From contig NZ_CAJKIS010000005.1 in the NCBI RefSeq assembly GCF_905200055.1, positions 12,192-76,191 of the forward strand: a stretch of 64,000 nucleotides of DNA, given 5' to 3'. Source of the stretch: an uncultured Fusobacterium sp. (GTDB lineage: Bacteria > Fusobacteriota > Fusobacteriia > Fusobacteriales > Fusobacteriaceae). This document shows positions 5,352-51,943 of this stretch, piece by piece. Both the position numbers and the translations under genes were made by a program. Under the pieces are notes generated by a model. That model had not been told where the DNA came from. It worked only from the letters and a program-made list of their open reading frames with translations, and made no database searches. Positions within the stretch are counted from its first letter, which is position 1. Each line of letters opens with the position of its first letter.

Positions 5352-5909
5352 TTATAGACTATCTCTTGAAATTATAAATTCTACTCTTCTATTTTTAGCT
5401 CTTCCTGCTGCTGTTGCATTATTAGCTATAGGATTTTGTTTTCCATATCCTTCAATAGAGATATTTGAACTTTTAACTCCTCTATCCACAAGATAATTTC
5501 TTATAGATTTTGCTCTTTTTACTGATAGTTCTAAGTTATACCCTTCACTTCCAATAAAATCAGTATATCCATCTATTTTTATTCTTATATCTGGGTTTTC
5601 CTCCAATGCTTTTGCCAAAGTATTTAAACTTCCTTTAACTTTATTTTTAACTTCATATTTATTGAAATCAAAAAGTACTAATTCAGGCATTGAAAGCACA
5701 AGGTTATTTCCCTCTTTTCTAATAGTTACTCCCTCTTCATTAAATACTATAAGCTCTTCTAAAGTCTTTTTAGAAACATCAATATCTTCCATTACAAATT
5801 GATTTTCAGTTTCTGTTATTACCATCTCTTTCATTGGTTTTTCTGCTGATGTACATCCTGTTAATGCAATGATGGCTGCTGCTGATAATAAAATTAAGCT
5901 CTTTTTCAT
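5352..5909 (-). CDS. OmpA-family lipoprotein (OmpA/MotB C-terminal domain)
   Basis: Lipobox signal MKKSLILLSAAAIIALTGCTS. OmpA_C motif IDGYTDFIGSEGYNLELSVKRAKSIRNYL. Confidence 0.8.
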   Translation of the reverse strand: MKKSLILLSAAAIIALTGCTSAEKPMKEMVITETENQFVMEDIDVSKKTLEELIVFNEEGVTIRKEGNNLVLSMPELVLFDFNKYEVKNKVKGSLNTLAKALEENPDIRIKIDGYTDFIGSEGYNLELSVKRAKSIRNYLVDRGVKSSNISIEGYGKQNPIANNATAAGRAKNRRVEFIISRDSL

Positions 5910-5930
5910 TTTTCCTCCTCTAATAATAAA

Positions 5931-7091
5931 TTAGAAAATAACAAACATTACATTTTCACTAGGAACTTGTTCATTTCTATTCTTATTAGGATTTTTTACC
6001 ATCCATTCAAATAGATATTTTGCATGTGGTTCTGTTGTTCTTATACATTTTCTTGTTCCTGTAAATGTCCCAAGTGTTTTTTCTTTTGCTCTCATAAAGA
6101 ACTCTCTATTTGTTTCTTCTTCATAATTTATAGGAGTTCCGTGAAGATATCCCCCACCAGAAAATCTAATAGCATATCTAGCATACCCTTGTTTCTCTCC
6201 TACTTCACTATTATATGGCATAATATATTTTGCCATAGGTGCTATAAAGAAACCTTTTGGTGTTTCAAATCCTAGTTCACTTTCTATACCAGTTTTACTA
6301 TAAACATATGATACAACTTCCCAAACATCATTATTCTTTTCAAAAACAATCATATTTTGATTTTCTATATCAATAGCAATAACTTTTCTAAAATTTTTAC
6401 TTATTTTAGGATTTCTTGATATTCTTTTATTTTCAATTACTAAAGGTTCTTTGATAGACGCTACTTTTACTTTTGAAGTTGTTGCTCCTTTTTCTAAAAT
6501 TGATAATACTGATCTATCTGGAACAAATATTCTTTCATCACCATAGTAACCAACTATATTTTGATCTAATGAAGTTCCATATTTATCTTTCTCTCTTTTA
6601 AAATTAACATTATTAGGATTTGGTACATAAGAGTTTGTACTTACTACCTCTCTTCCCTCTTCCATTTCTGTAACTATAAATTTTTCAAGCTCTTTTATCT
6701 TATCAAGTGCTTTCTCAAATCTAAACATTCTCTTTCTTACAACTGTTGAAGATATGTATCCCACTTCTCCTGTTGTAGATTTTACCTTATACCAATAATT
6801 TCCATAATCATATATTTTTTCTAAAGCTATAAGTTTAGTATCATAGTTAAATTTTTTAATAACTTTAGATTTAGTATTTGGTTGTTCTCTTAAATTTGCA
6901 GTTCTAGTTCTAACAAAAACATAATCTAAAACTTTTGGATGTCCACCAGAATACTTTTCATTTAAAATAACCCCATCTGCTATTTCATTATCATATGTAG
7001 CAACAGTTGTCCATTTCTGTTCTCCTTCAAATCCGAATACTGTTGTTCCTACAACGAATAATGAAATTAATAATGATTTTATAAATTTCAT
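5931..7091 (-). CDS. L,D-transpeptidase (YkuD domain) with N-terminal SH3b domain
   Basis: YkuD motif LHGTP...GTRKCIRT. SH3b-like ANLREQPNTKSKVIKKF...YWYKV. The start was trimmed to MKFIKSLLISLFVV (signal peptide); the ORF-track start at 7154 is probably too early. Confidence 0.7.
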   Translation of the reverse strand: MKFIKSLLISLFVVGTTVFGFEGEQKWTTVATYDNEIADGVILNEKYSGGHPKVLDYVFVRTRTANLREQPNTKSKVIKKFNYDTKLIALEKIYDYGNYWYKVKSTTGEVGYISSTVVRKRMFRFEKALDKIKELEKFIVTEMEEGREVVSTNSYVPNPNNVNFKREKDKYGTSLDQNIVGYYGDERIFVPDRSVLSILEKGATTSKVKVASIKEPLVIENKRISRNPKISKNFRKVIAIDIENQNMIVFEKNNDVWEVVSYVYSKTGIESELGFETPKGFFIAPMAKYIMPYNSEVGEKQGYARYAIRFSGGGYLHGTPINYEEETNREFFMRAKEKTLGTFTGTRKCIRTTEPHAKYLFEWMVKNPNKNRNEQVPSENVMFVIF

Positions 7092-11045: not shown

Positions 11046-12060
11046 CTACTACATCAATGACTTTCATTTTTAATTTATTTTGTAAAAGTTCTTTGAACTT
11101 TTCCTTTGGAAATTCATACCCAAGAGGAGAGCGAGGATTACATGTTACAAAAAGAAGATTTATATTATTCATAACTCTCAGCTCTACATTACTTGCCTCT
11201 AGTTTTCTTAAAGTTAAGAAATCTGCAAAAACCCTTGTTCCATCTTTTGCTATCAATGTTAGTTTTTTAAAATTACCTCTATTTTTTATCAAAACTTCTA
11301 AAAATTTTTTAGTAATAGCTCCCCTAACAGCTATTACCTGTATTTTATCGTTAAGATAACTTTTAATCTCTTCATTTGACTCTAAAGGTCCTATTCCTTC
11401 TAAAGTCTTTACTTCTCCATCATTATATACAATTCCAACTCTAGATTCTTCGAAAATTTTGTCAATTTTTTCTTTTAATACAGGATCTTCTATTTCTGGC
11501 AGATTTAATAAAGAAACTGTATTTGCTGTTTCATCTATTACTTTTCCCATATCTAAAGATAGAGCTGCTCCTGTAGAAAGAATAGTAGCATCTGTAACAT
11601 CGCTCATAGCACTTCCTTTTCTACTTAAAGCTCCATCAACTATTGAAAGTTCACTTCCAAAATGTTCCATTATATCTAGAATTACTTTTATCTGAGCATT
11701 ATATGATGGCCCTGCTATATCAACATATCCTGCTGAAATAGCTCTCAATATAATGATATCCCCCATAGGGGTTGAGAAATCTGTAGTGTACAAAATCTCT
11801 TTTGTAACATCACAGTTTCTCAAACAATCTCTTGCAGTAGCTATTATAGTACCCTGATTGACATATATTCTAGGTTTATGTGTATTAGTTACTACGTCTG
11901 TATCCTCTCCATCTCTTCCAATTGAAGTTAAGCCTATTGTCTTTTGCAATCCAATATCCTCTATCAATTTATTTAAGACAGTAGTTTTACCTACGTTCTT
12001 TTCCATACCTATTATTGACAATCTTTTATAATCTTTTAGTAGACTATAAGTATTTACCAT
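11020..12060 (-). CDS. P-loop NTPase of unknown function in the lysine-fermentation operon
   Basis: 346 aa with Walker A GMEKNVGKTT. Overlaps the downstream MutS-like gene by 26 nt. Confidence 0.5.
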   Translation of the reverse strand: MVNTYSLLKDYKRLSIIGMEKNVGKTTVLNKLIEDIGLQKTIGLTSIGRDGEDTDVVTNTHKPRIYVNQGTIIATARDCLRNCDVTKEILYTTDFSTPMGDIIILRAISAGYVDIAGPSYNAQIKVILDIMEHFGSELSIVDGALSRKGSAMSDVTDATILSTGAALSLDMGKVIDETANTVSLLNLPEIEDPVLKEKIDKIFEESRVGIVYNDGEVKTLEGIGPLESNEEIKSYLNDKIQVIAVRGAITKKFLEVLIKNRGNFKKLTLIAKDGTRVFADFLTLRKLEASNVELRVMNNINLLFVTCNPRSPLGYEFPKEKFKELLQNKLKMKVIDVVGERNEIYR

Positions 12061-15803: not shown

Positions 15804-16299
15804 ATTAATTTCCTCCTATCACTAACTTTAATTTTCAAAAAAACAAAAAGATGCATGTATTAAATAGACATAGTTAAACTGTAAGCATGACTTATTTCTA
15901 AAAACTTCAAGTCAAAATAGCTCTCCACAATTATATTGTGACAGTTGTTACATTTTTATGTAACCCCCAAAGAAAAAGATCCACAAGCCCTCTTTTTCTT
16001 TTCGGCAACTATGTCCTTCGTATGAAGCATTGAGCGCTTTTTCTCTTAGCATCTCCATACTACCCCCATAAATGCACCTCTATTTTTATAATCAATAGTA
16101 ATATTTAGTTGTCTCTTGCGCTATGCCATTCTTTTTTATAAAGAAAAACATTTATATAATATATATAAACTTTTTCTAAAAAAGTAACACATTTCTTTCA
16201 ATATAAGTATACTTTGACTTCTTTTAAAAGTCAATAGAAATTTTTATTTTTTTTTATTTTTCTATTTTTTATAAAATCAAACTCTTATTTTAAAGGAAT

Positions 16300-37960: not shown

Positions 37961-38037
37961 GATCCCGTAGCTCAATTGGATAGAGCAATTCCCTCCTAAG
38001 GAATAGGTTGTGTGTTCAAACCACATCGGGATCGCCA
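37961..38037 (+). tRNA. tRNA-Arg (anticodon CCU)
   Basis: Acceptor stem GATCCCG/CGGGATC, D-arm GCTCAATTGGATAGAGC, anticodon loop CTCCTAA, T-arm GTTCAAA, and an encoded CCA. Confidence 0.85.
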
Positions 38038-38059
38038 TTTTTATTTTAGGAGTACTATC

Positions 38060-38368
38060 ATGAAAAAATTATCTTTTATTTTTCTTATTATTTTTATTTT
38101 CAGTGGTTGTAGTAATCTAAATTTTTGGAGTAAATATAAAGAAAATAAGATTAAAAAACAATATACTCAACTATCTAAAAGATTTGATTCTCTTGTATCT
38201 GAAGAGATTGAAGAGGATAAGAGAGCTGAACTAGAAGAGGATTTCTCTAAGTATAGAAATAGAATCAATTCTAGTGGTGGAAAAGATAAAGAATATAATA
38301 ATACAGTTAGAGAGTTAGTTTTAAGTTCTGATATAAAAATACAATATTTAAAAGATTTAAAAGATTAG
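38060..38368 (+). CDS. Small lipoprotein of unknown function
   Basis: Start trimmed to MKKLSFIFLIIFIFSGCS (lipobox). The ORF-track version overlaps the tRNA. Confidence 0.55.
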   Translation: MKKLSFIFLIIFIFSGCSNLNFWSKYKENKIKKQYTQLSKRFDSLVSEEIEEDKRAELEEDFSKYRNRINSSGGKDKEYNNTVRELVLSSDIKIQYLKDLKD

Positions 38369-38375
38369 TGTGATA

Positions 38376-38412
38376 AGCTGGAGCAAGTTAATAATTACTC
38401 CAGCTTTTTTAT
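38376..38412 (+). terminator. Rho-independent terminator
   Basis: AGCTGGAGCAAGTTAATAATTACTCCAGCT followed by TTTTTTAT. Confidence 0.65.
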
Positions 38413-38738
38413 ATTAAACTATAGTTTATCTAACTAAGCTCAGTTATCTTGCACATCGCTAGGTTTTGACAAAGTGCCTTTGTATTTAGCGATTATTCGT
38501 CAAGTTAAGTTATCTCTATTTCTTTTAAATATCAGCTAAATTCCATGTCGTAGAATAAAGAGAGAGTAACACTCATCTGACTAAAATTCCGAAACTCACT
38601 TCGTTCAAACACGTCGGAATTTTTAGCGTCAGATTTCGTAACTCTCTCTAATATTCTTCTCCAAATTACATTTAGCTGATATTAGGGAAAACGAAAATAA
38701 CTTAATATAAATTAGAATGATAAGTTATAGTTTATCTA
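38410..38738. repeat. MITE-like element: ~300 bp with long imperfect inverted-repeat arms, flanked by 13-bp direct repeats TATAGTTTATCTA
   Basis: Direct repeats at 38410-38422 and 38726-38738. Internal arms 38527-38592 and 38615-38684 are near-reverse-complements (shared AATATCAGCTAAAT..AGAGAGAGT(A/T)AC..ATCTGAC..TAAAATTCCGA). Confidence 0.5.
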
Positions 38739-38802
38739 CAATTTAAAAAAAATCATATTTATGATATAATTTAAAAGAATTAAATTAAAAAAGGAGATAT
38801 GT

Positions 38803-39564
38803 ATGAAACTAATTTCATGGAATGTAAATGGATTGAGAGCTGCTGTACAAAAAGGTTTCTTAGATTATTTTAATCAAGAAGATGCAGATATATTTTGCTT
38901 ACAAGAAACTAAATTACAAGCTGGACAAATTGATCTTGAACTTAATGGATATCATCAATATTGGAATTATGCTGAAAAAAAAGGTTACTCTGGAACAGCT
39001 ATTTTCACTAAAAAAGAGCCTATATCTGTTACTTATGGATTAGGAATAGAGGAGCATGATAAAGAGGGAAGAGTTATAACATTAGAATTTGAAAATTTCT
39101 TTATGATTACAGTTTATACTCCAAACTCTCAAGAAGCTCTTGCTAGATTAGATTATAGAATGAAATGGGAAGATGATTTTAGAGCTTATCTTCTAAAATT
39201 AAATGAGATAAAACCTGTTATTGTTTGTGGGGATCTAAATGTTGCACATCAAGAGATAGATCTGAAAAATCCTAAAACAAATAGAAAAAATGCTGGTTTC
39301 TCTGATGAAGAGAGAGAAAAAATGGGAAAACTTTTAGACAGTGGATTTATTGACACTTTTAGATATTTTTATCCAGAATTAACAGGAGCTTACTCTTGGT
39401 GGTCTTATAGATTCAATGCTAGAAAAAACAATGCTGGGTGGAGAATAGATTATTTCCTTGTTTCTGAAAGATTAAAGGATTCTTTAGAAAATGCTGAAAT
39501 ACATAAAGATATTTTAGGATCTGATCACTGTCCTGTTGTTTTAAAATTAAAGGAGAATTTTTAG
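38803..39564 (+). CDS. xth: Exodeoxyribonuclease III (AP endonuclease)
   Basis: 253 aa. [13 protein letters not shown]...LQETK...DHCPV motifs. Confidence 0.9.
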
Positions 39565-39572
39565 GAGGAATA

Positions 39573-39815
39573 ATGGAAAACTTTAAAAGATTTTGTGAAG
39601 TTTGGGAGAAAGAAAAGCCAGTTCCTGAAGAAAGATACAGATTTTTTGAGCCAATGAGTTGTGTAATGATATTTTTCCTTACTCCTAACGATGTTGATAA
39701 TATAAATGCTTTCTTTAGAAAAAATGGAAGTTTCAACCCTGAAAGACCTATACATGAAGATATAGTAGTTGACGAAATCCATTATAATGGAAATTATATG
39801 ATTAAAATAGGATAG
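39573..39815 (+). CDS. Small hypothetical protein (80 aa)
   Basis: Good RBS GGAGGAATA before the ATG. No recognisable domain. Confidence 0.4.
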   Translation: MENFKRFCEVWEKEKPVPEERYRFFEPMSCVMIFFLTPNDVDNINAFFRKNGSFNPERPIHEDIVVDEIHYNGNYMIKIG

Positions 39816-39826
39816 GAGGATATTCT

Positions 39827-40630
39827 ATGAAAAATATTTTAACTATTGCTGGTTCTGACAGTTGTGGAGGAGCAGGAATACAAGCTGATTTAAAAACAAT
39901 GAGTGCTTTAGGTGTCTATGGTATGAGTGTAATCACTGCTATAACTGCTCAAAATAGTATGGGGGTTCATGCTGTTCAAGAGGTTTCTGAAGATATGATC
40001 AGAATGCAACTAGAGGCAATTTTTGATGATATTGAAGTTGATGCTATAAAAATAGGTATGCTCTCTAGTAGTACAGTTATAAAAACTATTCTTTCAACTT
40101 TAAAAAAATATAGTTGTAAAAATATTGTTATAGATACTGTTATGCTTTCTAAAAATAGATATAAACTTTTACAAGATGAGGGCATGGAAGATTTAAAAAA
40201 ACTTATATCATTAGGGACAGTTGTTACTCCTAATATCCCTGAGGCTGAAGTTTTGGCTAATATGGAGATAAAAAATGAAAATGATATGATTGAGGCTGGA
40301 AAAAAAATTCAGGCTTTAGGTGCTAAAAATATTTTAATTAAAGGTGGACATAGAGAAGATGATTGCACTGATATTCTTCTGTTAGAAAGTGGAGAAGTTT
40401 TAAAATTCCCAGAAGTGAGAATCTCTACAAAACATACTCATGGTACTGGTTGTACCCTTTCTTCTGCTATTGCATCCTTTATTGGAAAAGGATACTCAGT
40501 TGAAGAGAGTGTAAAACTTTCTAAAGAATACATTACTGAAGCTATTAGAAACTCTTTTCCTCTTGGTAAAGGGGTAGGACCTTTAGGACATCTTATTGAT
40601 CTTTATAAAAAAGCTGGTATTGAATATTAA
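39827..40630 (+). CDS. thiD: Hydroxymethylpyrimidine/phosphomethylpyrimidine kinase (ThiD/PdxK family)
   Basis: 267 aa. TIAGSDSCGGAGIQADLKT is the ThiD N-terminal signature. Confidence 0.85.
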   Translation: MKNILTIAGSDSCGGAGIQADLKTMSALGVYGMSVITAITAQNSMGVHAVQEVSEDMIRMQLEAIFDDIEVDAIKIGMLSSSTVIKTILSTLKKYSCKNIVIDTVMLSKNRYKLLQDEGMEDLKKLISLGTVVTPNIPEAEVLANMEIKNENDMIEAGKKIQALGAKNILIKGGHREDDCTDILLLESGEVLKFPEVRISTKHTHGTGCTLSSAIASFIGKGYSVEESVKLSKEYITEAIRNSFPLGKGVGPLGHLIDLYKKAGIEY

Positions 40631-41004
40631 AAAAATTAGAGAGGAAATAGACCTCTCTTTTTTTAATTCACTTAATAAATTTCTATAATTTTAAGAATTT
40701 CCATTTAGTCAATATTAAAATAATTTTTATCTTTTTTATGATTTTTTTACAATTGTATATTCAAATAGTTACCTCTTTTTTAATTTTATTCAAACTTTTT
40801 CTGTTCAAATTATATAATTTTTAAATATTATGTTTTATTTTTTTAAATTATAGATAGATTTTTTTACATTTTATATTTTTTGATAATATTTTTTTATATC
40901 TATTTTTATCTCAATTCCATTCTTTTTTTAAATTCAATTTTTATATTCTTAATTTGTTTACTTTCAGTTAAAATCATTTTATAAAAAGACTAAAAATTTG
41001 ATTA

Positions 41005-41033
41005 TTGACAACTAAAAAAGAAAAATGTATACT
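41005..41033 (+). promoter_or_regulatory. Sigma70-like promoter of the PTS operon (TTGACA-17-TATACT)
   Basis: TTGACA at 41005-41010, a 17-nt spacer, then TATACT at 41028-41033. Confidence 0.55.
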
Positions 41034-41089
41034 TGGGATATCAGTCGTAAAGGTACGAACAACAGTATAATTTTAAGGAGGAATTTTTT

Positions 41090-41563
41090 ATGCCAAATAT
41101 AGTTTTAACCAGAATTGATAACAGATTGATACATGGACAAGTTGCAACAGCATGGGCTCAATATTCAGGAGCAAACCTTTTATTGGTTCCTAATGATGAC
41201 GTTAGCGTGAACCCTACAAGACAAAATTTAATGAATCTTGCTGCACCAAAAGGAATGCAAACAAGATATTTTTCAGTTCAAAAAACAATAGATATTATTC
41301 ATAAAGCTGCCGATAGACAACTTATTGCAATAATAGCTGAAACACCTCAAGATGTAGTTAGATTAGTTGAAGGTGGAGTACCTATTAAAAAAGTAAATGT
41401 TGGAAATATGCATATGTCTGAAGGAAAAAAACAAATTTCAAAAGCAGTTTGTGTTAATGAAGCAGATATAGCTGCATTTAAAAGACTAAAGGAACTTGGT
41501 GTTGAAGTTGAAATACAAAGAGTTCCTACAGAAGCAAAAGAAAATATATGGGATTTAATTTAA
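41090..41563 (+). CDS. PTS mannose/fructose/sorbose family IIB component
   Basis: 157 aa. MPNIVLTRIDNRLIHGQV has the IIB-Man phospho-His. Confidence 0.85.
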   Translation: MPNIVLTRIDNRLIHGQVATAWAQYSGANLLLVPNDDVSVNPTRQNLMNLAAPKGMQTRYFSVQKTIDIIHKAADRQLIAIIAETPQDVVRLVEGGVPIKKVNVGNMHMSEGKKQISKAVCVNEADIAAFKRLKELGVEVEIQRVPTEAKENIWDLI

Positions 41564-41644
41564 TTTTAACTATGGGTTTTTAGACAAATTTTTAATTATA
41601 TGATTTTAATTTTATTAAAATATAGTTAAGGAGGGAAAACATTT

Positions 41645-42430
41645 ATGTTAATGGAGTCATTGTTAATAGCAATATTTGCTGGAATAGCAGGTATTGACTT
41701 ATTTGATGGGTTGATACATATTCATAGACCCATCGTAACAGGAGCAGTAGTAGGGCTTATATTGGGTGATCTTAGAATGGGACTTATAGCTGGAGCAACA
41801 CTTGAACTAGTATGGATGGGAGCCGTACCAGTTGGAGGAGCACAGCCACCTAACGTTGTTGTTGGAGGTATTATTGGAAGTACATTTGCAATTCTTACAA
41901 AACAAGATCCTGCAACAGCAGTAGGAATAGCTATTCCATTTGCAGTAGCTGTACAAGCTTGTATCACTTTATTATTTACTTTCTTCTCACCTGTAATGCA
42001 TAAAGCAGATAAATATGCTGAAGAAGCAAATACAAGTGGAATTGAAAGAATCAATTACCTTGGATTAGTATTGTTGTTTGTATTCTATTTCACAGTAACT
42101 TTCTTACCTATTTCAATGGGAGCAAAAGCTGCTCAAGAGATTGTAGAATTACTACCTCAATGGTTAATAGATGGATTTGGTGTAGCTGGTGGTTTAATGC
42201 CTGCAATTGGATTTGCTATGCTTTTAAATATCATGTTCAAGAAAAATTATATTATTTTCTTTGTACTTGGATTTATTCTTGCAACATATTTACACTTACC
42301 TGTAATAGGAATAGCTGCAGTTGGATTTATAATTGCTATTTATGATTATCAAGTAAATAAAAAAATGGATAATATACAACCTACAGTTGGAGTAACAGCA
42401 GAGGAGGAGGATTATAGCGATGGAATATAG
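41645..42430 (+). CDS. PTS mannose-family IIC component
   Basis: 261 aa polytopic membrane protein in the IIC position. Confidence 0.8.
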   Translation: MLMESLLIAIFAGIAGIDLFDGLIHIHRPIVTGAVVGLILGDLRMGLIAGATLELVWMGAVPVGGAQPPNVVVGGIIGSTFAILTKQDPATAVGIAIPFAVAVQACITLLFTFFSPVMHKADKYAEEANTSGIERINYLGLVLLFVFYFTVTFLPISMGAKAAQEIVELLPQWLIDGFGVAGGLMPAIGFAMLLNIMFKKNYIIFFVLGFILATYLHLPVIGIAAVGFIIAIYDYQVNKKMDNIQPTVGVTAEEEDYSDGI

Positions 42431-43229
42431 AGACAACAGTAAAGAAAAAGTTATAACTAAAAAAGATTTGAATAATATGGTATGGAGATCACTTCTTTTA
42501 CAAGCATCTTTTAACTATGAAAGAATGCAAGCTGGTGGTTGGCTATATTCAATTCTTCCTGGGCTTAAAAAAATTCATAAAAATAAAGAAGATCTTTCAA
42601 ATTCAATGAAACTTCACCTTGAATTCTTCAATGTACATCCATTCTTAGTTACATTTGTTCAAGGACTTGTTCTTGCAATGGAAGAAAATAAAGAGAGTCA
42701 AGATTCAATAAGAGGTATTAAAATTGCTTTAATGGGACCTCTTGGAGGAATCGGAGATGCTCTATGTTGGTTTACACTTCTACCTATAACTGCAAGTATT
42801 GGAGTTTCTCTTGCAAAAGATGGTAATATTGCTGGTCCAATAGTATTTTTACTTCTATTTAATATAGTTCATATCTTCTTAAGATTTTTCTTAATGCACT
42901 ATTCTTATAAAATGGGAGTTGGAGCTATTTCAAAACTAAAAGATGATACAGAATATGTTACAAATGGATCTTTAATTTTAGGACTTACAGTAATTGGAGG
43001 ACTAATTGCTTCATTTGTAAACTTAAAAATAGCAACTGTTATAAATCTTGGAAATGATGTTATGGTTAATATTCAACAAGATGTTTTTGATAAAATAATA
43101 CCTAATATTTTACCATTACTTTATACATTGTTTATGTTCTATCTTCTTAAAAAAGGTAAAAAACCAATAACTCTTATTCTTCTTACTCTTGTAATAGGTA
43201 TAGCAGGAAGAGGACTTGGAATTTTATAA
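42420..43229 (+). CDS. PTS mannose-family IID component
   Basis: 269 aa. WRSLLLQASFNYERMQAGGW is the IID signature. Confidence 0.8.
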   Translation: MEYRDNSKEKVITKKDLNNMVWRSLLLQASFNYERMQAGGWLYSILPGLKKIHKNKEDLSNSMKLHLEFFNVHPFLVTFVQGLVLAMEENKESQDSIRGIKIALMGPLGGIGDALCWFTLLPITASIGVSLAKDGNIAGPIVFLLLFNIVHIFLRFFLMHYSYKMGVGAISKLKDDTEYVTNGSLILGLTVIGGLIASFVNLKIATVINLGNDVMVNIQQDVFDKIIPNILPLLYTLFMFYLLKKGKKPITLILLTLVIGIAGRGLGIL

Positions 43230-43244
43230 TAAAGGAGATAAGTT

Positions 43245-43673
43245 ATGACACCAATTATAGTAACAGGACATGGGGAGTTTGCTTCAGCTCTTGAAAAAAC
43301 TATGGAGTATGTTGTTGGCCCTCAAGAAGATATTTATTTTATAAATTTTAATAACGGAATGGGAAATGGGGAACTTGAAGAGAAACTAAGAAAAGTTGTT
43401 TCAGAAACAGGAAGTGACGAAATAATATTCTTAGCTGACATAGTTGGAGGAACTCCCTTTTCTACAGCTGTTTTAATTTCTCAAGATATACCAAAAAGCA
43501 AAGTATTTGGTGGATGTAATATGCCTATGCTATTTGCTGCTCTTGAAATGAGAGAAGAAGGAACTCTTGAGGAGATAGCAGAAAATATATTAGCAGATGC
43601 AAAAGCTAATATAGCTCTTTTTGAAAATACAATAGCTATCTGTGAAATTGATGATTTTGAAGATGGTATTTAA
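43245..43673 (+). CDS. PTS mannose-family IIA component
   Basis: 142 aa. MTPIIVTGHGEFASAL carries the IIA-Man active His. Confidence 0.8.
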   Translation: MTPIIVTGHGEFASALEKTMEYVVGPQEDIYFINFNNGMGNGELEEKLRKVVSETGSDEIIFLADIVGGTPFSTAVLISQDIPKSKVFGGCNMPMLFAALEMREEGTLEEIAENILADAKANIALFENTIAICEIDDFEDGI

Positions 43674-43685
43674 ACTAAACAATAA

Positions 43686-43722
43686 AAGACCTGCACTTCA
43701 TTTAGTAGTGCAGGTCTTTATT
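43686..43722. terminator. Bidirectional palindromic terminator between the PTS operon and kdsC
   Basis: AGACCTGCACTTCATTTAGTAGTGCAGGTCT flanked by A/T runs. Confidence 0.6.
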
Positions 43723-43724
43723 TA

Positions 43725-44228
43725 TTATTTTTGATTTAAAAATCTATTTATTACATTTTCCCAAGTTCCATTTTCTTTCATTAGAAATTCAATGAATTCT
43801 CTTACTGCTCCATCTCCACCATCTTTAGTAGAAATAAAATGAACTCTCTCTAAAACTTCAGCTGCACTATTTTTAGGAGCTGCTGCAATTTTTACCATTC
43901 TCATTACACCAAGATCGTTGATGTCATCTCCCATATATGCTACTTCATCTAAAGTTATACCTAATTTAGTTATTAATTTCTCCATCTCTTGAACTTTATT
44001 TGATATCCCTTGAGCTACCTCTTGGATTCCTAATTCGTCTGCTCTTCTTTGTACAATATTAGAAGATTTTCCAGTAATTATTGCAACTATTCCACCCTCT
44101 TTTATCCATTGAGCTATTGCAAATCCATCTTTAACATCAAAAGCCTTTAAGTTGTTGTCTTTATCATCTGTATATATCTTTCCATTTGATAATGTTCCAT
44201 CCACATCTAAAGCTATTAATTTTATCAT
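43725..44228 (-). CDS. kdsC: KdsC-family HAD phosphatase (3-deoxy-D-manno-octulosonate-8-phosphate phosphatase-like)
   Basis: 167 aa. LIALDVDGTLSNGKIY...LKAFDVKDGFAI...AYMGDDINDLGVM...GGDGAVRE closely parallels KdsC. Confidence 0.75.
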   Translation of the reverse strand: MIKLIALDVDGTLSNGKIYTDDKDNNLKAFDVKDGFAIAQWIKEGGIVAIITGKSSNIVQRRADELGIQEVAQGISNKVQEMEKLITKLGITLDEVAYMGDDINDLGVMRMVKIAAAPKNSAAEVLERVHFISTKDGGDGAVREFIEFLMKENGTWENVINRFLNQK

Positions 44229-44310
44229 CTTTCCTCATCTCCCTTTTAAATTTTTATATAAAGAAAAAAGGATATCCAATACAGGATATCCTCTCACATA
44301 CTAAGAAAAA

Positions 44311-44571
44311 TTATAGTGCGTTTACTTTAGCAGCTAATCTTGCTTTCTTTCTAGATGCTGTATTTTTCTTCATGATTCCTTTGCTTACTGCTTTATCTAA
44401 TTCTTTGTAAGCTACTGATAGAGCTGCTTTTGCTGCTTCTACATCTTTAGTATCTACAGTTGTTAAAACTTTTTTAGTCATTGTTTTAACTCTAGATTTT
44501 ACTGCTTGATTTCTTTCTCTGTTTCTTTCTGCTACTAAAACTCTCTTTTTAGCTGATCTTGAATGTGCCAA
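44311..44571 (-). CDS. rpsT: 30S ribosomal protein S20
   Basis: AHSRSAKKRVLVAERNRERN... matches S20. Likely TTG start with a GGAGG RBS; the ORF-track M lies upstream of the RBS. Confidence 0.8.
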   Translation of the reverse strand: MAHSRSAKKRVLVAERNRERNQAVKSRVKTMTKKVLTTVDTKDVEAAKAALSVAYKELDKAVSKGIMKKNTASRKKARLAAKVNAL

Positions 44572-45046
44572 ATTAAAAACCTCCAATTATTTTCAAATAA
44601 ATAAATTATTTTTCCATAAAATGATATCATAAATTAAACAAAATGTCAACTTGTTATTGACAAGAAGTAATTTTAATTTGTTTAAGTTAAGCTACAAAAG
44701 AGACACCTTTTCTTGTACAATGGACCATATTTATTCTATCATAATTTCCCAAAAATTAAAAGTATTTTTTATATAAATTTCTTTTAAATCTTTATTTGTT
44801 AGATTTCAATACATCTATATAATCTGGTGTAATAAATGAATTTTAGGTACTCATTTTTGGACTACTCAAACTCTAAAACAGCTAGTCATAGACATTTTAT
44901 AGCAATAATCAAGGGAGATAAAGTTCATTTTAAGGCAAAAATGGGTGTTTATTTTCCGTTCAGTAGTTTTAATTGAAAAAAGCAGATTTTTTTAACTACT
45001 GAAATACAGCCATTAATACCTTTAATTTTCACGTAAAAGAATAAAA

Positions 45047-45392
45047 AGTGTAATCAGATGTAATCATTTGTAATCAAAGTGTAATCATAAAAATTTATAC
45101 TAAAAATTAGAAATAACAATATAAAATAAAAGTGTAATCAAAAATGGGAGTAAGGGGACGTATATATATAGGTAATTTATAATATATTTGTATAAAAAAG
45201 TCTCCCTATATAAGATAGGTCTGTGTAAATTTGATTACACTTCACCCTAATTTCTATATATAACTATCTTAAATACATATAAAATTAAGTATAATTAATG
45301 ATTACACTTAATTTTTAAAATATATATTAATAAATAGAAATAATAGTAATTAATAGATGTAATCAAAAGTTGGTTACATATTGATTACACTT
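45047..45392. repeat. Iteron-like array: nine copies of (AAG)TGTAATCA / TGATTACA(CTT) in ~350 bp of a 1.1 kb non-coding spacer
   Basis: Forward copies at 45047, 45059, 45069, 45078 (10-11 bp phasing), 45131 and 45358. Reverse copies at 45232, 45299 and 45382. Six copies share the 11-mer AAGTGTAATCA. Confidence 0.6.
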
Positions 45393-45647
45393 ACAAGATT
45401 AAAACTATCTATAAAACTATATAAAAATAAAAACATAAAGAAAAATATTGAAAAAAAACTCTTTAGAACAGTAGTATTTTAGTAAAATAGACTAGTTGTC
45501 TAAGAGAAAAAAAGGAGCTTTTTACAACCTCTATAGCTATTTTAAGTGGGGTGAGTGACAGTAAAAAAGAGCTAAAGTACTTAAAAATATATAAAAAATC
45601 ACATTTAATATGGCAAATTTATCTAAATATTCAATTAAAATATTATA

Positions 45648-45688
45648 AAAAGTAGCTCCAGTACTAGTACCAGAGCTACTCAATTATA
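45648..45688 (-). terminator. Rho-independent terminator of carB
   Basis: GTAGCTCCAGTACT/AGTACCAGAGCTAC hairpin followed, on the minus strand, by TTTTTAT. Confidence 0.6.
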
Positions 45689-45705
45689 ATTATTAATAAT
45701 ATTTA

Positions 45706-48700
45706 CTAAATTTTACTTACATCGAATACTTCAAGTTTATCTTCTTCAACATGTCTATCTTGCATTCTTAAAATTGCACTGATAGTGTCTAAAGCTGTTA
45801 AAACTTCAACTCCATATTCAATAGCAGTTCTTCTCATTTTAAATCCATCTCTTTGAGCGTCATTTGCTTTTGTAGGTGTATTGATTAGTAGATCAACTTC
45901 TCTATTTTTCAATACATCAGAGATGTTAGGTGATGCTTCTCCCATTCTGTTTACTATTTTAGCTTCAACACCATTGTCAGCTAGGAATTTTTGAGTTCCT
46001 TTAGTTGCATAAAGGATAGATCCATGTTCAACAAGGCTCTTAGCTATTGGTAAGAATTCCTCTTTATCTTTATCTCTAATAGTAACAAGTATCTTTCTAT
46101 CTTTGATTAGGTGAACTCTCTTAGCTCCTAAAAGTCCTTTATAGATAGCTTCATCTACGTTGTTTCCAACTCCAAGAACTTCTCCTGTAGATCTCATTTC
46201 AGGTCCTAATGATACTTCAACACTTGAAAGTTTTTCAGTAGAGAATACTGGTACTTTTACAGCAACTACATTTGGTTTTTTATAGATTCCTGTTCCATAA
46301 GGCATATCTTTTAATTTTTCTCCAAGAGCCACTCTTGTAGCTATTTCAATTGCAGGTACTCCTGAAACTTTTGAAATATATGGAACTGTTCTTGAAGATC
46401 TTGGGTTAACTTCAATTACATATAATTTATGCTCATAAGCTATAAATTGAATGTTCATCATACCTTTAACTTCAAGAGCTTTAGCTATTTTCTTAGTAAT
46501 TTCAAGAAGTTCTTCTTCTGTTCCTTCATATAGATTTTGTTGTGGATAGATAGTTATTGAGTCTCCAGAGTGAACTCCTGCTCTTTCTAAGTGTTCCATA
46601 ACTCCAGGGATTAATACATCTTCTCCATCACAGATAGCATCTACTTCAAGTTCAATACCGTTTAGATATTTATCTATTAATACTGGGTTTGAAGGGTCTC
46701 TATCAAATGATGCTTCTAGATATTTAACTAGGTTATATTCATCGTGACAAATTTCCATTCCTTGTCCTCCAAGTACATATGAAGGTCTTACAAGTACTGG
46801 GTATTTAATTTCATTTGCTATTGAGATTCCGTGGTTTACATCCCATACTGCTCTTCCTTTTGGTCTAGCAATATCAAGTTCTTCCATCATCTCTTCAAAT
46901 CTTTCTCTATCTTCTGCTTCGTCAATTTTGTCTGCACTTGTTCCAATTACTTTTATTCCTCTATCGCTTAGGTCATTTGCTAATTTAATAGCTGTTTGTC
47001 CTCCAAATTGAAGAATAACTCCTTCTGGTTTTTCTTTTTCAAGAATATTCATAATATCTTCTGTTACAAGTGGTTCAAAGTATAGTTTATCAGCAGTTGA
47101 GAAGTCTGTTGATACAGTTTCTGGGTTGTTGTTGATAATTATACTTTCAATTCCAAGTTTTTTAAGTGTTTTAACTGCATGTACTGTACAGTAGTCAAAT
47201 TCTATTCCTTGTCCAATTCTGATTGGTCCTGAACCTATAACAACTATTTTTCTTCTATCTGATACTGTTGCATCATCATATTGATCATAAGTTGAGTAGT
47301 AGTATGAAGATGTAGCTTTAAACTCTCCAGCACAAGTGTCAACCATTTTGTAAACTGGTGTTATATGATAAGCTTTTCTCTTAGTGTAGATGTCATCTTC
47401 ACTGATTCCCATAAGATCTGCTATTCCTTTATCTGAGAATCCTTTATTTTTTAATTTTCTTAAATAATCTGGATCTAATTCTTTGAATTTTAATCCTTTT
47501 AAAATCTCTTCTTGTTTAACTATCCATTCGATTTTTTCCATGAAGAATTTATCTATTCCAGTTAATTTTTGAAGTTTTTCTTTTATATATCCTCTTCTTA
47601 ACATTTCTGCAACAACGAAGATTCTTTCATCATCTGGTTTAACTACAGCAGCTTTTAATTGTTCCATAGTCATTTTCTTAGCTACTGGGTGTTCTAAACT
47701 ATATCTTCCAATTTCAAGTGATCTGATTCCTTTTAAGAAAGCTGATTCAAATGTACTTCCGATAGCCATAACTTCTCCAGTTGCCATCATTTTTGTTCCT
47801 AGTGTTCTATTTGCTTTTTTGAACTTATCAAATGGCCACTTAGGAATTTTTACAACTATATAGTCAATAGTTGGATCAAAACAAGCATAAGTTGTTTGAG
47901 TAGCTTCGTTTACTATTTCATCAAGAGTATATCCCATAGCAAGTTTTGTAGATACTCTAGCTATTGGGTAACCAGTTGCTTTTGATGCAAGAGCTGATGA
48001 TCTTGAAACTCTTGGGTTAATTTCTATAATTGCATATTCAAATGATTTTGGATGAAGAGCAAATTGAACATTACATCCTCCAATAACTCCAACTTCATTT
48101 ACTATTTTAACTGCTGATGCTCTAAGCATTGCACACTCTTTAGCTGAAAGTGTTTGAGTTGGTGCAACAACTATTGAGTCTCCAGTATGGATTCCAACTG
48201 GGTCAACGTTTTCCATGTTACATACAACTATTGTATTTCCATTTTTATCTCTGATTACTTCATATTCAATCTCTTTCCATCCATAGATTGATTTTTCAAG
48301 AAGTACTTGTCCTACCATTGAAAGAGCAAGTCCTTTTACTAATATATCTTCTAGTTCTTTAGGGTTGTTAGCAATTCCCCCTCCAGTTCCTCCAAGAGTA
48401 TATGCAGGTCTTACAACGATTGGGTATCCAATCTCTCTTGCAACTTCGAATCCTTCTTCAAGAGTTTCAACTATTTTACTTTGAATAATAGGTTCTCCTA
48501 ATTTATTCATTGTTTCTCTGAATATTTCTCTGTCTTCTCCCTTTTTAATAGATTCAACAGAAGTTCCAATTACTCTTACTCCATATTTTTCAAGGATACC
48601 TTTTTCTGAAAGCTCAACTACCATGTTAAGTCCAGTTTGTCCTCCCATTCCTGCAATAATAGAGTCTGGTCTTTCTTTAGATATTACTTTTTCAACAAAT

Positions 48701-48912
48701 TCTATAGTGATTGGTTCAATATATATTCTATCAGCAACTGCTTTATCTGTCATAATTGTAGCAGGGTTTGAGTTGATAAGTACAACTTCAATTCCCTCTT
48801 TTTTTAGAGTTTCACAAGCTTGAGTTCCTGAATAGTCAAATTCAGCAGCTTGTCCTATTATAATTGGTCCTGAACCTATTACAAGTGTTTTCTTTATAGA
48901 TTTATCTAACAT
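45706..48912 (-). CDS. carB: Carbamoyl-phosphate synthase large subunit
   Basis: 1068 aa with duplicated ATP-grasp halves and a C-terminal MGS-like domain. Confidence 0.95.
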
Positions 48913-50017: not shown

Positions 50018-50508
50018 TTCCCCTCCTAAAAAAAAAGATACAACTACAAAAAGTTATATCTTAGAAAATTTAAAATATTTAAAATTATGAATAACAAATC
50101 TAAAAGAAAAATCAAAAAGAATAGCAAATAGTTTTAACTTAAATGTGTTATTATACTTTTTATTTGATAGTATAACCTCTGCCATATAACATCCCTCCTG
50201 ATTTTTACTAAAAAATATTATATCTTTTTTTCAAACCTTTGTCAAGAAGTTTATTCTGTAAAATAACTAAAGCTATTTTTAATAAAAAACTTTTTTAAAG
50301 ACAATTTAATTTTTATTTTTACAATATTTACTTTTATTAATATAATATGTATCAGATTTAAACTTTTATTAGATTAAAATTTTTTTATTTTTTTCCTCTA
50401 TTTACAAAAAAATTAAATTAAGATTATATTTTCAAAAGACTGCTTAAATCAAATTAATGTACTGCACCCAAAATCTTAGACAACTAAGATGGAGGGTGTA
50501 GTTTTTTT

Positions 50509-51024
50509 ATGGCTAAATTAACAAATGAACAACGAATTGAAATTTATGAAAGAAGATTAAAAGGAGAAACACTAAGCTCATTAGCTTTGGAATTTAATAT
50601 AAATATTAACAGGTTAAAATATTTAGTTAGACTTCTAAAAAAGCATGGATATAATATTCTTAGAACTGACAAAAATAGATACTATTCTAAAGAATTTAAA
50701 GAATTAATAATTAATAGAGTTTTAGTGAATAAAGAATCTATAGTATCAGTAGCGATTGATATTGGACTTAGTTCAGAAGGAATTTTAATAAATTGGATTA
50801 AAAAATATAAAGAAAACTGCTATAATGTCATAGAAAATAAAAAAGGGAGAATACCAAAAACTATGACTAAAATAAAAAAATCTAAAAAAACATTGACTAA
50901 AGAAGATAAAATTAAAGAATTAGAAAATAAAATTTTGTATTTAGAAGCTGAAAATGAATATTTAAAAAAGTTAAATGCTCTGGTTCAGGAAGAAGAATTA
51001 GCAAAGAGCAAAGAGTCAGAGTAA
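50509..51024 (+). CDS. IS3-family transposase OrfA (HTH + leucine zipper)
   Basis: 171 aa. Helix-turn-helix near the N-terminus and a heptad leucine repeat LENKILYLEAENEYLKKL. Confidence 0.85.
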   Translation: MAKLTNEQRIEIYERRLKGETLSSLALEFNININRLKYLVRLLKKHGYNILRTDKNRYYSKEFKELIINRVLVNKESIVSVAIDIGLSSEGILINWIKKYKENCYNVIENKKGRIPKTMTKIKKSKKTLTKEDKIKELENKILYLEAENEYLKKLNALVQEEELAKSKESE

Positions 51025-51878
51025 TAACTGAACTTAGAGCTAAATATCCTTTAAAAATATTACTTAAAATATCTGGTATAGCAAGAGCAACATACTATTT
51101 TTATACAAATAAACAAGATAAAGATTTAAAAAATCAAGATATTATCGAGAAAATCAAAGAAATATTTTACGCGAATAAAAAGAGATATGGATATCGCAGA
51201 ATTACATTAGAGCTTAAAAATCAAGGAATAAATATTAATCATAAAAAAGTATTAAGACTTATGAATAAATTGAATTTACAAAGTATTACACACAAAAGAA
51301 AGAGAAAATATTCTTCTTATCAAGGAACTATTGGTAAAATCGCTGACAATCATATTAAACGAAATTTTGAAGCAAATAGACCAAATGAAAAATGGTTTAC
51401 AGATGTAACAGAATTTAATTTAAGAGGAAGTAAACTGTATTTATCGCCAATATTAGACGCATATGGAAGATATATAGTTTCATATAATTTATCATTATCA
51501 CCAAATTTAAATCAAATAATAGATATGCTAGAAAGAGCATTTAGTGTTAATACTGATGTAAATAATTTAACGCTTCATAGTGATCAAGGTTGGCAATATC
51601 AACATAGTTTCTATAGTAAAAGATTAGAAGAAAAAAATATTATTCAAAGTATGTCAAGAAAAGGAAATAGTTTAGACAATGGATTAATGGAAGGTTTCTT
51701 TGGAATAATAAAAACAGAAATGTTTTATGGACAAGAAAAGAATTACAGAAATATAGAAGAACTAAAGCTAGCAATAGAAGAATATATAGATTATTACAAC
51801 AACAAAAGAATTAAAGTAAAATTAAAAGGATTAACCCCTGCATCATACAGGAATCAATCCTTGTTAATCAACAATTAA
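50965..51878 (+). CDS. IS3-family transposase OrfB (DDE/rve integrase core), expressed by programmed -1 frameshift as OrfAB
   Basis: The -1 frame is open from the A6G site at 50964-50970 (…KKVKCSGSGRRISKEQRVRVITELRAKYP…) through the rve domain (HSDQGWQY...DNGLMEGFFG). The ORF-track fragment 51261-51878 is only its C-terminal part. Confidence 0.75.
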
Positions 51879-51943
51879 AATATGTATCTAAGAAAATGGG
51901 TTCACTACATAACCTTCAACTATAGCAGTCTTTTGCTTTCTAT

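Follow-up and report, generated by a model that had tools for sequence, protein, structure and literature searches.

A probable orphaned prophage replication origin between rpsT and carB in Fusobacterium

We analyzed a 64-kb stretch of DNA (hereafter, the window) from an uncultured Fusobacterium sp., focusing on an array of short repeats in the gene-free spacer (44587-45705) between rpsT (44311-44574) and carB (45706-48912), both encoded on the minus strand. The flanking genes were assigned to the Ribosomal_S20p and CPSase_L families, respectively. CarB is 93% identical to proteins from metagenome-assembled genomes in ENA, 90% to that of Fusobacterium sp. THCT1E1 and 89% to that of F. varium, and the source organism belongs with the varium/ulcerans/mortiferum group of the genus. 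The spacer ranges from 19 to 28% GC (19% in the array) and was found to hold no open reading frame (ORF) of at least 60 aa, in agreement with an earlier inspection of the letters and ORF list (hereafter, the sequence-only reading). Rfam detected nothing in the spacer at gathering thresholds and only chance-level matches (E above 2) in a permissive scan, and tRNA and tmRNA scans of the spacer gave no tRNA or tRNA-like match.

The exact core TGTAATCA (reverse, TGATTACA) occurs 15 times on the two strands of the window, compared with 3.8 expected, and none of 100 shuffles reached this count. Nine of the 15 fall in 45049-45389, six forward (starting at 45049, 45059, 45069, 45080, 45133, and 45358) and three reverse (45232, 45299, and 45382). 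The densest 350 bp thus contains nine cores, as opposed to at most two in 300 first-order Markov simulations; the cluster is real and chance is excluded. The 11-mer AAGTGTAATCA has exactly six copies in the window, all inside the array (45046-45392). These counts reproduce those of the sequence-only reading, i.e., nine copies in about 350 bp, six of them extended to the 11-mer. Its copy positions hold to within about 2 nt; the shift of about 1-2 nt at 45047, 45078, and 45131 reflects the use of a longer motif, with 11-mers that begin at 45046, 45077, and 45130. The tandem of the first four cores at one helical turn (spacings of 10, 10, and 11 bp) and the palindrome of the last pair (TGTAATCA-N16-TGATTACA, 45358-45389) were likewise recovered as described. 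With a degenerate copy, TGGTTACA, at the right end, the array of the window has 10 repeat copies; most strains have 11, due to an extra 10-bp reverse copy at the right end that is present in five of eight assemblies of the locus and in the intact elements described below, and absent from the other three assemblies. The region between the forward and reverse groups holds a TA-rich run, GTATATATATAGGTAATTTATAATATATTTGTATAAAAAA, and a box, CCCTATATAAGATAGGT (45203-45219).

Relatives of the spacer were retrieved by scanning metagenomes with the 42-nt tandem block of the window, which returned three AT-rich contigs (L350, L393, and L417). One of these, L417, represents the same chromosomal locus (98.8% identity). 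Window positions 44852-45613 align to L350 and L393 at 81-82% identity, and at 80-82% across L350, L393, L468, and L465. In all four of these elements the array begins 1-2 nt past the stop codon of a primase-helicase ORF (hereafter, rep, encoding Rep), and an ORF comes next (83 aa, also in L393), which in L350, L465, and L468 belongs to the HTH_17 family (Pfam, 4.3e-9) and has its start codon ~50 nt beyond the end of the array.

Both neighboring genes have left remnants in the window (Table 1). Using tblastn, the L350 primase-helicase matched 44807-44986 (frame +2, with three in-frame stops) and 44932-45015 (frame +1), so that residues 705-774 align over 44807-45015; the reading frame is broken by the in-frame stops and the frame change. 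At the DNA level, the rep remnant (44852-45040) is 73.5% identical to intact L468, and a 46-aa ORF (44836-44976) is part of it. The perfect hairpin with a 10-bp stem that the sequence-only reading had pointed out is present as well. It lies inside the rep remnant, is imperfect in the intact gene according to the L350/L393 alignment, and no T-run follows it. The HTH_17 protein matched 45448-45601 in the same type of search. We considered the small spacer ORFs as genes and rejected them, as they are pieces of the two pseudogenes. The array forms the middle of a ~830-bp fossil (44807-45613).

Table 1 Features of the rpsT-carB spacer (window coordinates).
Feature	Positions	Strand	Remarks
rpsT consensus promoter TTGACA-17-TATCAT	44621-44649	-	DNA from here to 44777 common to fossil-free lineages
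Primase-helicase (rep) 3'-end pseudogene	44807-45044	+	Matches residues ~705-783 of the 783-aa intact protein; TAA kept at 45042-45044
10-bp-stem hairpin TTCAGTAGTT ... AACTACTGAA	44959-45003		Inside rep pseudogene
Four tandem forward iterons	45046-45087	+	AAGTGTAATCA, gaTGTAATCA, ttTGTAATCA, AAGTGTAATCA; identical in L350/L393/L468
Fifth forward iteron AAGTGTAATCA	45130-45140	+	Conserved in L350, L393, L465, L468
Origin centre (putative) between forward and reverse groups	45141-45231		Presumed DNA-unwinding region; 88% identical to L468
Reverse iteron TGATTACACTT	45232-45242	-	In the exact 11-mer count
Reverse iteron TGATTACACTT	45299-45309	-	In the exact 11-mer count
Right-end group	45358-45392		Forward core 45358-45365, degenerate TGGTTACA reverse copy 45371-45378, reverse iteron 45382-45392
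HTH_17 (excisionase-family) 83-aa gene, pseudogene remnant	45448-45613	+	Two in-frame stops and a frameshift; 78.0% identical to L468
carB intrinsic terminator (strong)	45650-45681	-	Marks right limit of fossil segment

The intact primase-helicase has 783 aa (counted from MEKAYKF), with a zinc-ribbon-like N-terminus and a Walker A motif (GTTSAGKT), and its profile matches were Pfam Toprim_2 (2.6e-15) and phrog_239 'DNA primase/helicase' (1.9e-32). Fusobacterium genomes commonly encode homologs (F. necrophorum, F. varium), which carry only the annotation 'toprim domain-containing protein'. An AlphaFold2 model of the intact Rep (P0242), built on a 40-sequence alignment (mean predicted local distance difference test score of 80.4), was compared with PDB structures using Foldseek. 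The N-terminus matched Aquifex DnaG and the T7 gp4 primase, and the model matched SaPIbov1 Rep (8tch_B; E 1.4e-7, probability 1.00, 565 aligned columns), a structure entitled 'Initiation of replication protein with helicase activity encoded by Pathogenicity Island SaPIBov1'. The NrS-1 helicase region and ORC were matched more weakly. At the C-terminus, ~65 residues (709-771) are modeled as helix-helix-beta-beta, which is winged-helix-like. At the level of prediction, the initiator of the intact relatives is thus an AAA+ helicase with a C-terminal winged helix; the window encodes no such protein.

The origins of the staphylococcal pathogenicity islands (SaPIs) lie immediately 3' of rep and consist of 6-12 short iterons and a central AT-rich region, with at least two iterons per side in opposite directions (PMC9371898). 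SaPI Rep is a self-loading helicase whose C-terminal winged helix recognizes the iterons, and in SaPI5 the primase and Rep are fused (PriRep5) (PMC9371898). We observed the same architecture in the window, i.e., a rep stop codon and ~240 nt of decayed rep, five forward copies on the left (45046-45140), a centre (45141-45231), and a right side with one forward copy and four reverse copies, one of which is degenerate. As in SaPI5, the primase is fused to Rep in the Fusobacterium protein. Unlike in the SaPIs, however, its primase half is DnaG/T7-gp4-like (Toprim), and it has no detectable sequence similarity to SaPI Rep, the likeness coming from the predicted structure. The host also differs, being a Fusobacterium prophage or defective island rather than a staphylococcal satellite, and the window copy is without rep. 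The relatives are either full prophages (L470-473) or small islands with an endolysin but no integrase (L465 and L468), and do not conform to a phage satellite, defined by an integrase, helper-dependent induction, and packaging hijack. By analogy, the Fusobacterium module may work like a SaPI replicon, while the element of the relatives is not established as a satellite.

To reveal how the repeats relate to Rep across the family, we profiled 63 IMG/VR loci with Rep relatives over the 600 nt that follow the stop codon. Each Rep subgroup has its own 8-mer in this stretch, with the forward copies first and the reverse copies beyond an AT-rich gap, and for most motifs nearly all copies in the 8-18-kb locus sit within these 600 nt. 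The motif is TGTAATCA in L468 and in L521, whose sequence is otherwise unrelated, a mix of TGTAAGCA and TGTAATCA in L465, TGTAGTCA in L474 and L483, and TGTGGTCA in L470-473 and L477-484, while L492 and its relatives have a GGTAACC-type motif. A Rep homolog with 52% identity is part of a complete prophage replication block, between cI/cro and TerS/TerL/portal, in the prophages of F. necrophorum (L470-473). Their rep is followed by ~380 bp of non-coding DNA with two copies of TGTGGTCA, an AT-rich centre, and three copies of TGACCACA, the sole copies in 18 kb. The array starts 5-75 nt from the rep stop codon in L470-473, L474, L477, and L521. This tracking of Rep subgroup by repeat motif is the best available evidence, drawn from sequence comparison, that Rep would read the repeats. 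Fusobacterium prophages appear to use a SaPI-like fused primase/initiator-helicase, with GT[AG][AG][TC]C-type 8-mer cores that vary by subgroup. In the literature searched, we found no description of a Fusobacterium fused Toprim primase/Rep-like helicase with a subgroup-specific 8-mer origin after its gene, and a search for the 8-mer returned just primer noise.

Given the homology to intact elements, the flanking pseudogenes, the shared architecture, the predicted Rep fold, and the covariation of Rep and iterons, we conclude that the array is most probably the cis-acting replication origin of a Fusobacterium prophage-type module that has been orphaned, and hence a fossil of a mobile element and not a chromosomal control site. 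The replicon to which it would have belonged is of the SaPI/P4 style, with a primase-initiator-helicase, and comes from a lineage of Fusobacterium prophages. Two suggestions of the sequence-only reading, an iteron-like replication site and a relic of an integrated element, are borne out by the position of the array directly after the initiator-helicase gene in intact relatives with a SaPI-type layout, and by the rep and HTH_17 remnants that flank it in the window. Its other suggestions, i.e., a partition site, the binding array of a lineage-specific regulator, and the promoter of a small RNA, found no support.

In the intact element, a single protein combines a DnaG/T7-gp4-type primase with a SaPI-Rep-like AAA+ initiator-helicase, and the putative origin starts right after the rep stop codon with ~10 short iterons (core TGTAATCA, often AAGTGTAATCA), arranged as forward copies, an AT-rich centre, and reverse copies, with the small HTH_17 gene next to it. 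By analogy with SaPI Rep, the C-terminal winged-helix domain of the initiator would bind the iterons, two helicase rings would load head-on over the AT-rich centre and melt it, and the fused primase would then begin synthesis, firing the array as an origin. The assignment of 45141-45231 as the unwinding region is likewise presumed, from the description of SaPI origins. In the lineage of the window, a rearrangement joined carB to rpsT, and this rearrangement or later deletions probably removed all of rep except the last ~240 nt. The flanking rep and HTH_17 genes decayed to pseudogenes, leaving the origin without a nearby cognate initiator. A puzzling gene-free spacer of 1.1 kb thereby becomes a defined object, comprising a rep pseudogene, an origin, and an HTH_17 pseudogene. 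The Rep/origin pairs are testable in a genus with few genetic tools, and are candidate replicons for shuttle vectors.

Several observations weigh against this interpretation. The assignment of an origin to this Rep family rests on the SaPI analogy, and sequence searches detect just the DnaG/T7-gp4-like primase half of the protein. The iterons are 8-11 nt long, compared with 5-6 nt in SaPIs, and four of them are in a 10-11-bp tandem. The intact islands L465 and L468 look like defective prophage remnants themselves, and in both of them the array doubles as the region upstream of HTH_17, which makes a regulatory and an origin role inseparable there. In addition, the array has been kept far better than the flanking pseudogenes (see below), which does not fit a purely dead relic.

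The main alternative to an origin is an operator array, in which the repeats bind a transcription regulator, e.g., the adjacent HTH_17 protein, that controls promoters between rep and HTH_17, the window copy being dead. The short distance from the array to the HTH_17 start codon in L350, L465, and L468 would fit such a role, as would the similar arrays that an environmental phage family (see below) carries between divergent operons, and promoter-like hexamers occur inside the array, though they are not commoner than in shuffles. However, the repeat motif changes with the Rep subgroup, and the array stays directly after rep in the F. necrophorum prophages and the L474/L521-type phages; in the F. 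necrophorum prophages, the gene called just past the array has no HTH_17 assignment on record. The succession of forward copies, AT-rich centre, and reverse copies right after an initiator-helicase gene is moreover the published layout of an origin (PMC9371898). We thus consider an operator unlikely.

To evaluate the conservation of the orphaned array, we compared it with its flanks both between the window and the intact elements and among strains. Identity to L468 is 73.5% in the rep remnant, 91.1% in the array, 91.5% in the spacer after the array, and 78.0% in the HTH_17 remnant (Fisher p = 2e-8 for the array versus the gene remnants). The intact L468 and L465 differ from each other by ~8-11% in every segment except the short spacer after the array (19%), and the array and spacer of the window are about as similar to the intact elements (91%) as these are to each other (89%). 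Among the eight assemblies of the locus, there were 4.2-4.3 single-nucleotide polymorphisms (SNPs) per 100 bp in the pseudogenes, 2.2 in the array, and 0 in the rpsT promoter region. Either the array has been under constraint after the death of the genes, or the element that gave rise to the fossil was a variant in which the genes had already diverged more than the origin. A compositional artefact of AT-rich DNA, which the sequence-only reading had named as a possible refutation, or a microsatellite made by slippage that was never functional, might be suspected in a spacer this poor in GC, where one 10-bp unit has been gained or lost between strains. Such an explanation is contradicted by clustering far beyond the simulations, by the conservation of every site in elements whose flanks are just 74-78% identical, and by the use of other motifs in the equivalent arrays of other Rep subgroups, and has next to no chance of being correct.

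Because the array is better conserved than the gene remnants, it may have retained a function in trans. It is conceivable, though unlikely, that selection keeps the orphan origin and that a primase-helicase with TGTAATCA specificity, supplied by a phage that is resident or infecting, still recognizes it; L468 and L521 provide examples of such Reps. If so, firing of the array during phage induction would over-replicate the carAB-rpsT neighborhood in situ, feeding lateral transduction or gene dosage, or, alternatively, the array would be a chromosomal decoy that titrates the phage initiator. This raises the question of whether stranded phage origins stay targets of incoming phage initiators.

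We also compared 14 rpsT loci of relatives that share 99-100% RpsT identity with the window. Twelve of them have different genes upstream of rpsT (either DUF4250 from a BatD operon or an SBP_bac_5 gene), and these loci are ~98% identical to the window from rpsT to 44777-44780, where the homology ends. The segment 44781-45705 is carried only by genomes with the carB-rpsT junction, i.e., the window, L086-L089, L187, L190, and L417, and no homolog of the spacer was found 3' of carB in five relatives (CarB 88-93% identical), which have other genes there. Given this restricted distribution, the ~870 bp are therefore lineage-specific DNA at a rearrangement junction, and the fossil marks the rearrangement that joined carB to rpsT. 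Absence from close relatives had been named as a possible refutation by the sequence-only reading; the genomes with 98% identical rpsT DNA that are without 44781-45705 are instead as expected of a mobile-element relic. The rpsT upstream region (44587-44780) shows no SNP among the eight assemblies and is conserved whatever gene lies beyond it.

We initially favored an attP-like site or a deleted integrative element, in which the repeats would be arm-type sites of a tyrosine integrase (attP-like, or the fused attL/attR arms of the deleted element). Searching species-representative genomes for pairs of the 11-mer no more than 30 nt apart gave no Fusobacterium, and AAGTGTAATCA dimers were detected beside a tRNA 3' fragment in more than 20 loci of Lachnospiraceae/Clostridia. 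In these elements (e.g., L094, L118, L139, L145, and L147), the dimer AAGTGTAATCA-A-AAGTGTAATCA lies ~45 nt from the 3' tRNA gene fragment, and the nearby tyrosine integrases have a 'GKDGRWR' N-terminus in several loci. The integrase gene (phrog_1) is within ~250 nt of the repeats in L094, L118, L145, and L163, and the last of these, a viral contig, has sites on both sides of a tRNA-like core, resembling the arm-type sites of attP. However, these loci were retrieved using the 11-mer itself, so the match of the motif is not independent evidence. The array of the window has neither a tRNA-like core nor a persuasive direct repeat on its flanks (the best is 17/21 and of low complexity), the window has no integrase homolog, and in the true homologs of the segment the array follows rep rather than lying next to an integrase. 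This explanation was dropped, as the architecture differs and the match was due to a motif-based search, and we now regard a recombination site as very unlikely.

The arms of the array (45046-45066 and 45371-45392) are inverted repeats ~305 bp apart, and the predicted folding of the single strand is much stronger than that of shuffles (z = -5.5), as might be expected of a miniature inverted-repeat transposable element (MITE) with repeat-rich terminal inverted repeats, or of an inverton flipped by a recombinase in trans. The strong fold is due to the repeats of the array. No target-site duplication was detected (45041-45045 versus 45393-45397), the 64 kb contain a single cluster, and all eight independent assemblies have the same orientation. 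In the relatives, moreover, the position of the array behind rep is constant, and the DNA to its left and right is homologous. A MITE or inverton is thus highly improbable.

Other origins were compared as well. The alpha protein of satellite phage P4 is a single primase-helicase-origin-binding protein, whose target is a short octamer (the type I iteron, TGTTCACC) repeated in both orientations in the P4 ori. Its primase belongs to a different fold family, and P4 needs a second site, crr, several kb away. We obtained no sequence or structure match between the Fusobacterium Rep and P4 alpha. In lambdoid phages that are otherwise alike, initiator and iterons change their specificities together, and the iterons are bordered by an AT-rich region. 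The lambda iterons are ~19 bp long and all located within the O gene, whose product recruits the host DnaB via P, whereas the Fusobacterium initiator itself looks like a helicase and its origin is outside the gene. Iteron plasmids, with which the array had been compared in the sequence-only reading, and the R1 parC centromere have helically phased direct repeats that are bound cooperatively by a plasmid protein, and the array shares this phasing. Plasmid iterons of the Rep_3/RepA type are typically 17-22 bp long, in one orientation, and beside a Rep_3-type gene and DnaA boxes. The units here, in contrast, are 8-11 bp long and in both orientations, and the adjacent gene in the intact relatives encodes a Toprim and Rep-like helicase rather than Rep_3. 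No par genes were found near the array.

BLAST searches of PLSDB plasmids and INPHARED phages with the spacer gave only chance AT-rich matches, and no PLSDB plasmid matches the spacer. A chromosomal oriC was considered and rejected; GC skew follows gene orientation only. A PLSDB entry from Fusobacterium vincentii (NZ_CP084075.1, L091), the 2.1-Mb 'plasmid pSB055A', is evidently a chromosome, and its matched region adjoins ftsZ. The small contigs were inspected as possible circular plasmids, and no terminal overlap was found.

In the intact islands (L465-L468), the gene order is primase-helicase, array, HTH_17, small ORFs, and endolysin (phrog_465), and no integrase was seen in L465 or L468. 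On either side of the endolysin cassette lies a cluster of a ~37-nt repeat, GTTTTAAACCTTATTTTAGATGGTCGGCTCCTTATAC, that recurs every ~76 nt (L465:9207-9506 and 11177-11474; L468:3762-3991 and 5662-6031). These clusters resemble mini CRISPR-like or recombination repeats and were missed by Tandem Repeats Finder.

Scans of viral sequences revealed an uncultured phage family with comparable arrays in more than 530 contigs (L191-L344, e.g., L212, L213, L217, L218, L221, and L235; also L030, L031, and L164). These have one repeat cluster per at least 20 kb, located ~100-250 bp upstream of a TerS-like/VRR-NUC gene pair and consisting of two to three GTGTnnnCA repeats, an A/T box, and then two to three inverted copies. 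From one phage to another, every copy in the cluster changes its central triplet (TGTCAACA, TGAGAACA, TGAGGACA, TGATGACA, TGTAAACA, TGAGTACA, or TGTAATCA), while the surrounding DNA and proteins are nearly identical. The A/T boxes of the window and of this family match at 13 of 17 positions, which is suggestive but not decisive. We considered a pac/cos site bound by TerS and rejected it, because the TerS-like, VRR-NUC, and neighboring proteins are identical in phages whose triplets differ; TerS is thus not the repeat binder, and the factor that sets repeat specificity in this family is not among the adjacent genes. The TerS-like protein has at most 34% identity to named INPHARED phages (tblastn), and, within 10 kb, this family showed no homolog of the Fusobacterium Rep.

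The wider rpsT/carA surroundings (38000-44230 and 50500-51900 of the window; L086, L087, and L177-L190) differ between conspecific assemblies. Beside a HAD hydrolase, some assemblies have a mannose phosphotransferase system (PTS-mannose) operon, and others a PDDEXK_4 gene with or without an ABC-transporter pair. An insertion sequence (an rve-family transposase and a 171-aa ORF) is present upstream of the carA leader in some strains. Two Logan contigs (L001 and L002) with the exact RpsT of the window stop 2 nt before the gene, just short of the spacer, and AT-rich, repeat-rich DNA such as this spacer may break short-read assemblies. In addition to the consensus promoter, we read a putative second rpsT promoter of the extended -10 type, TGATAGAAT, at ~44725-44733 on the minus strand. 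Elsewhere in the window, the sole Rfam and tRNA matches were a lysine riboswitch (RF00168, 85 bits; 15910-16090, minus strand) and tRNA-Arg(CCT) (37961-38037, plus strand).

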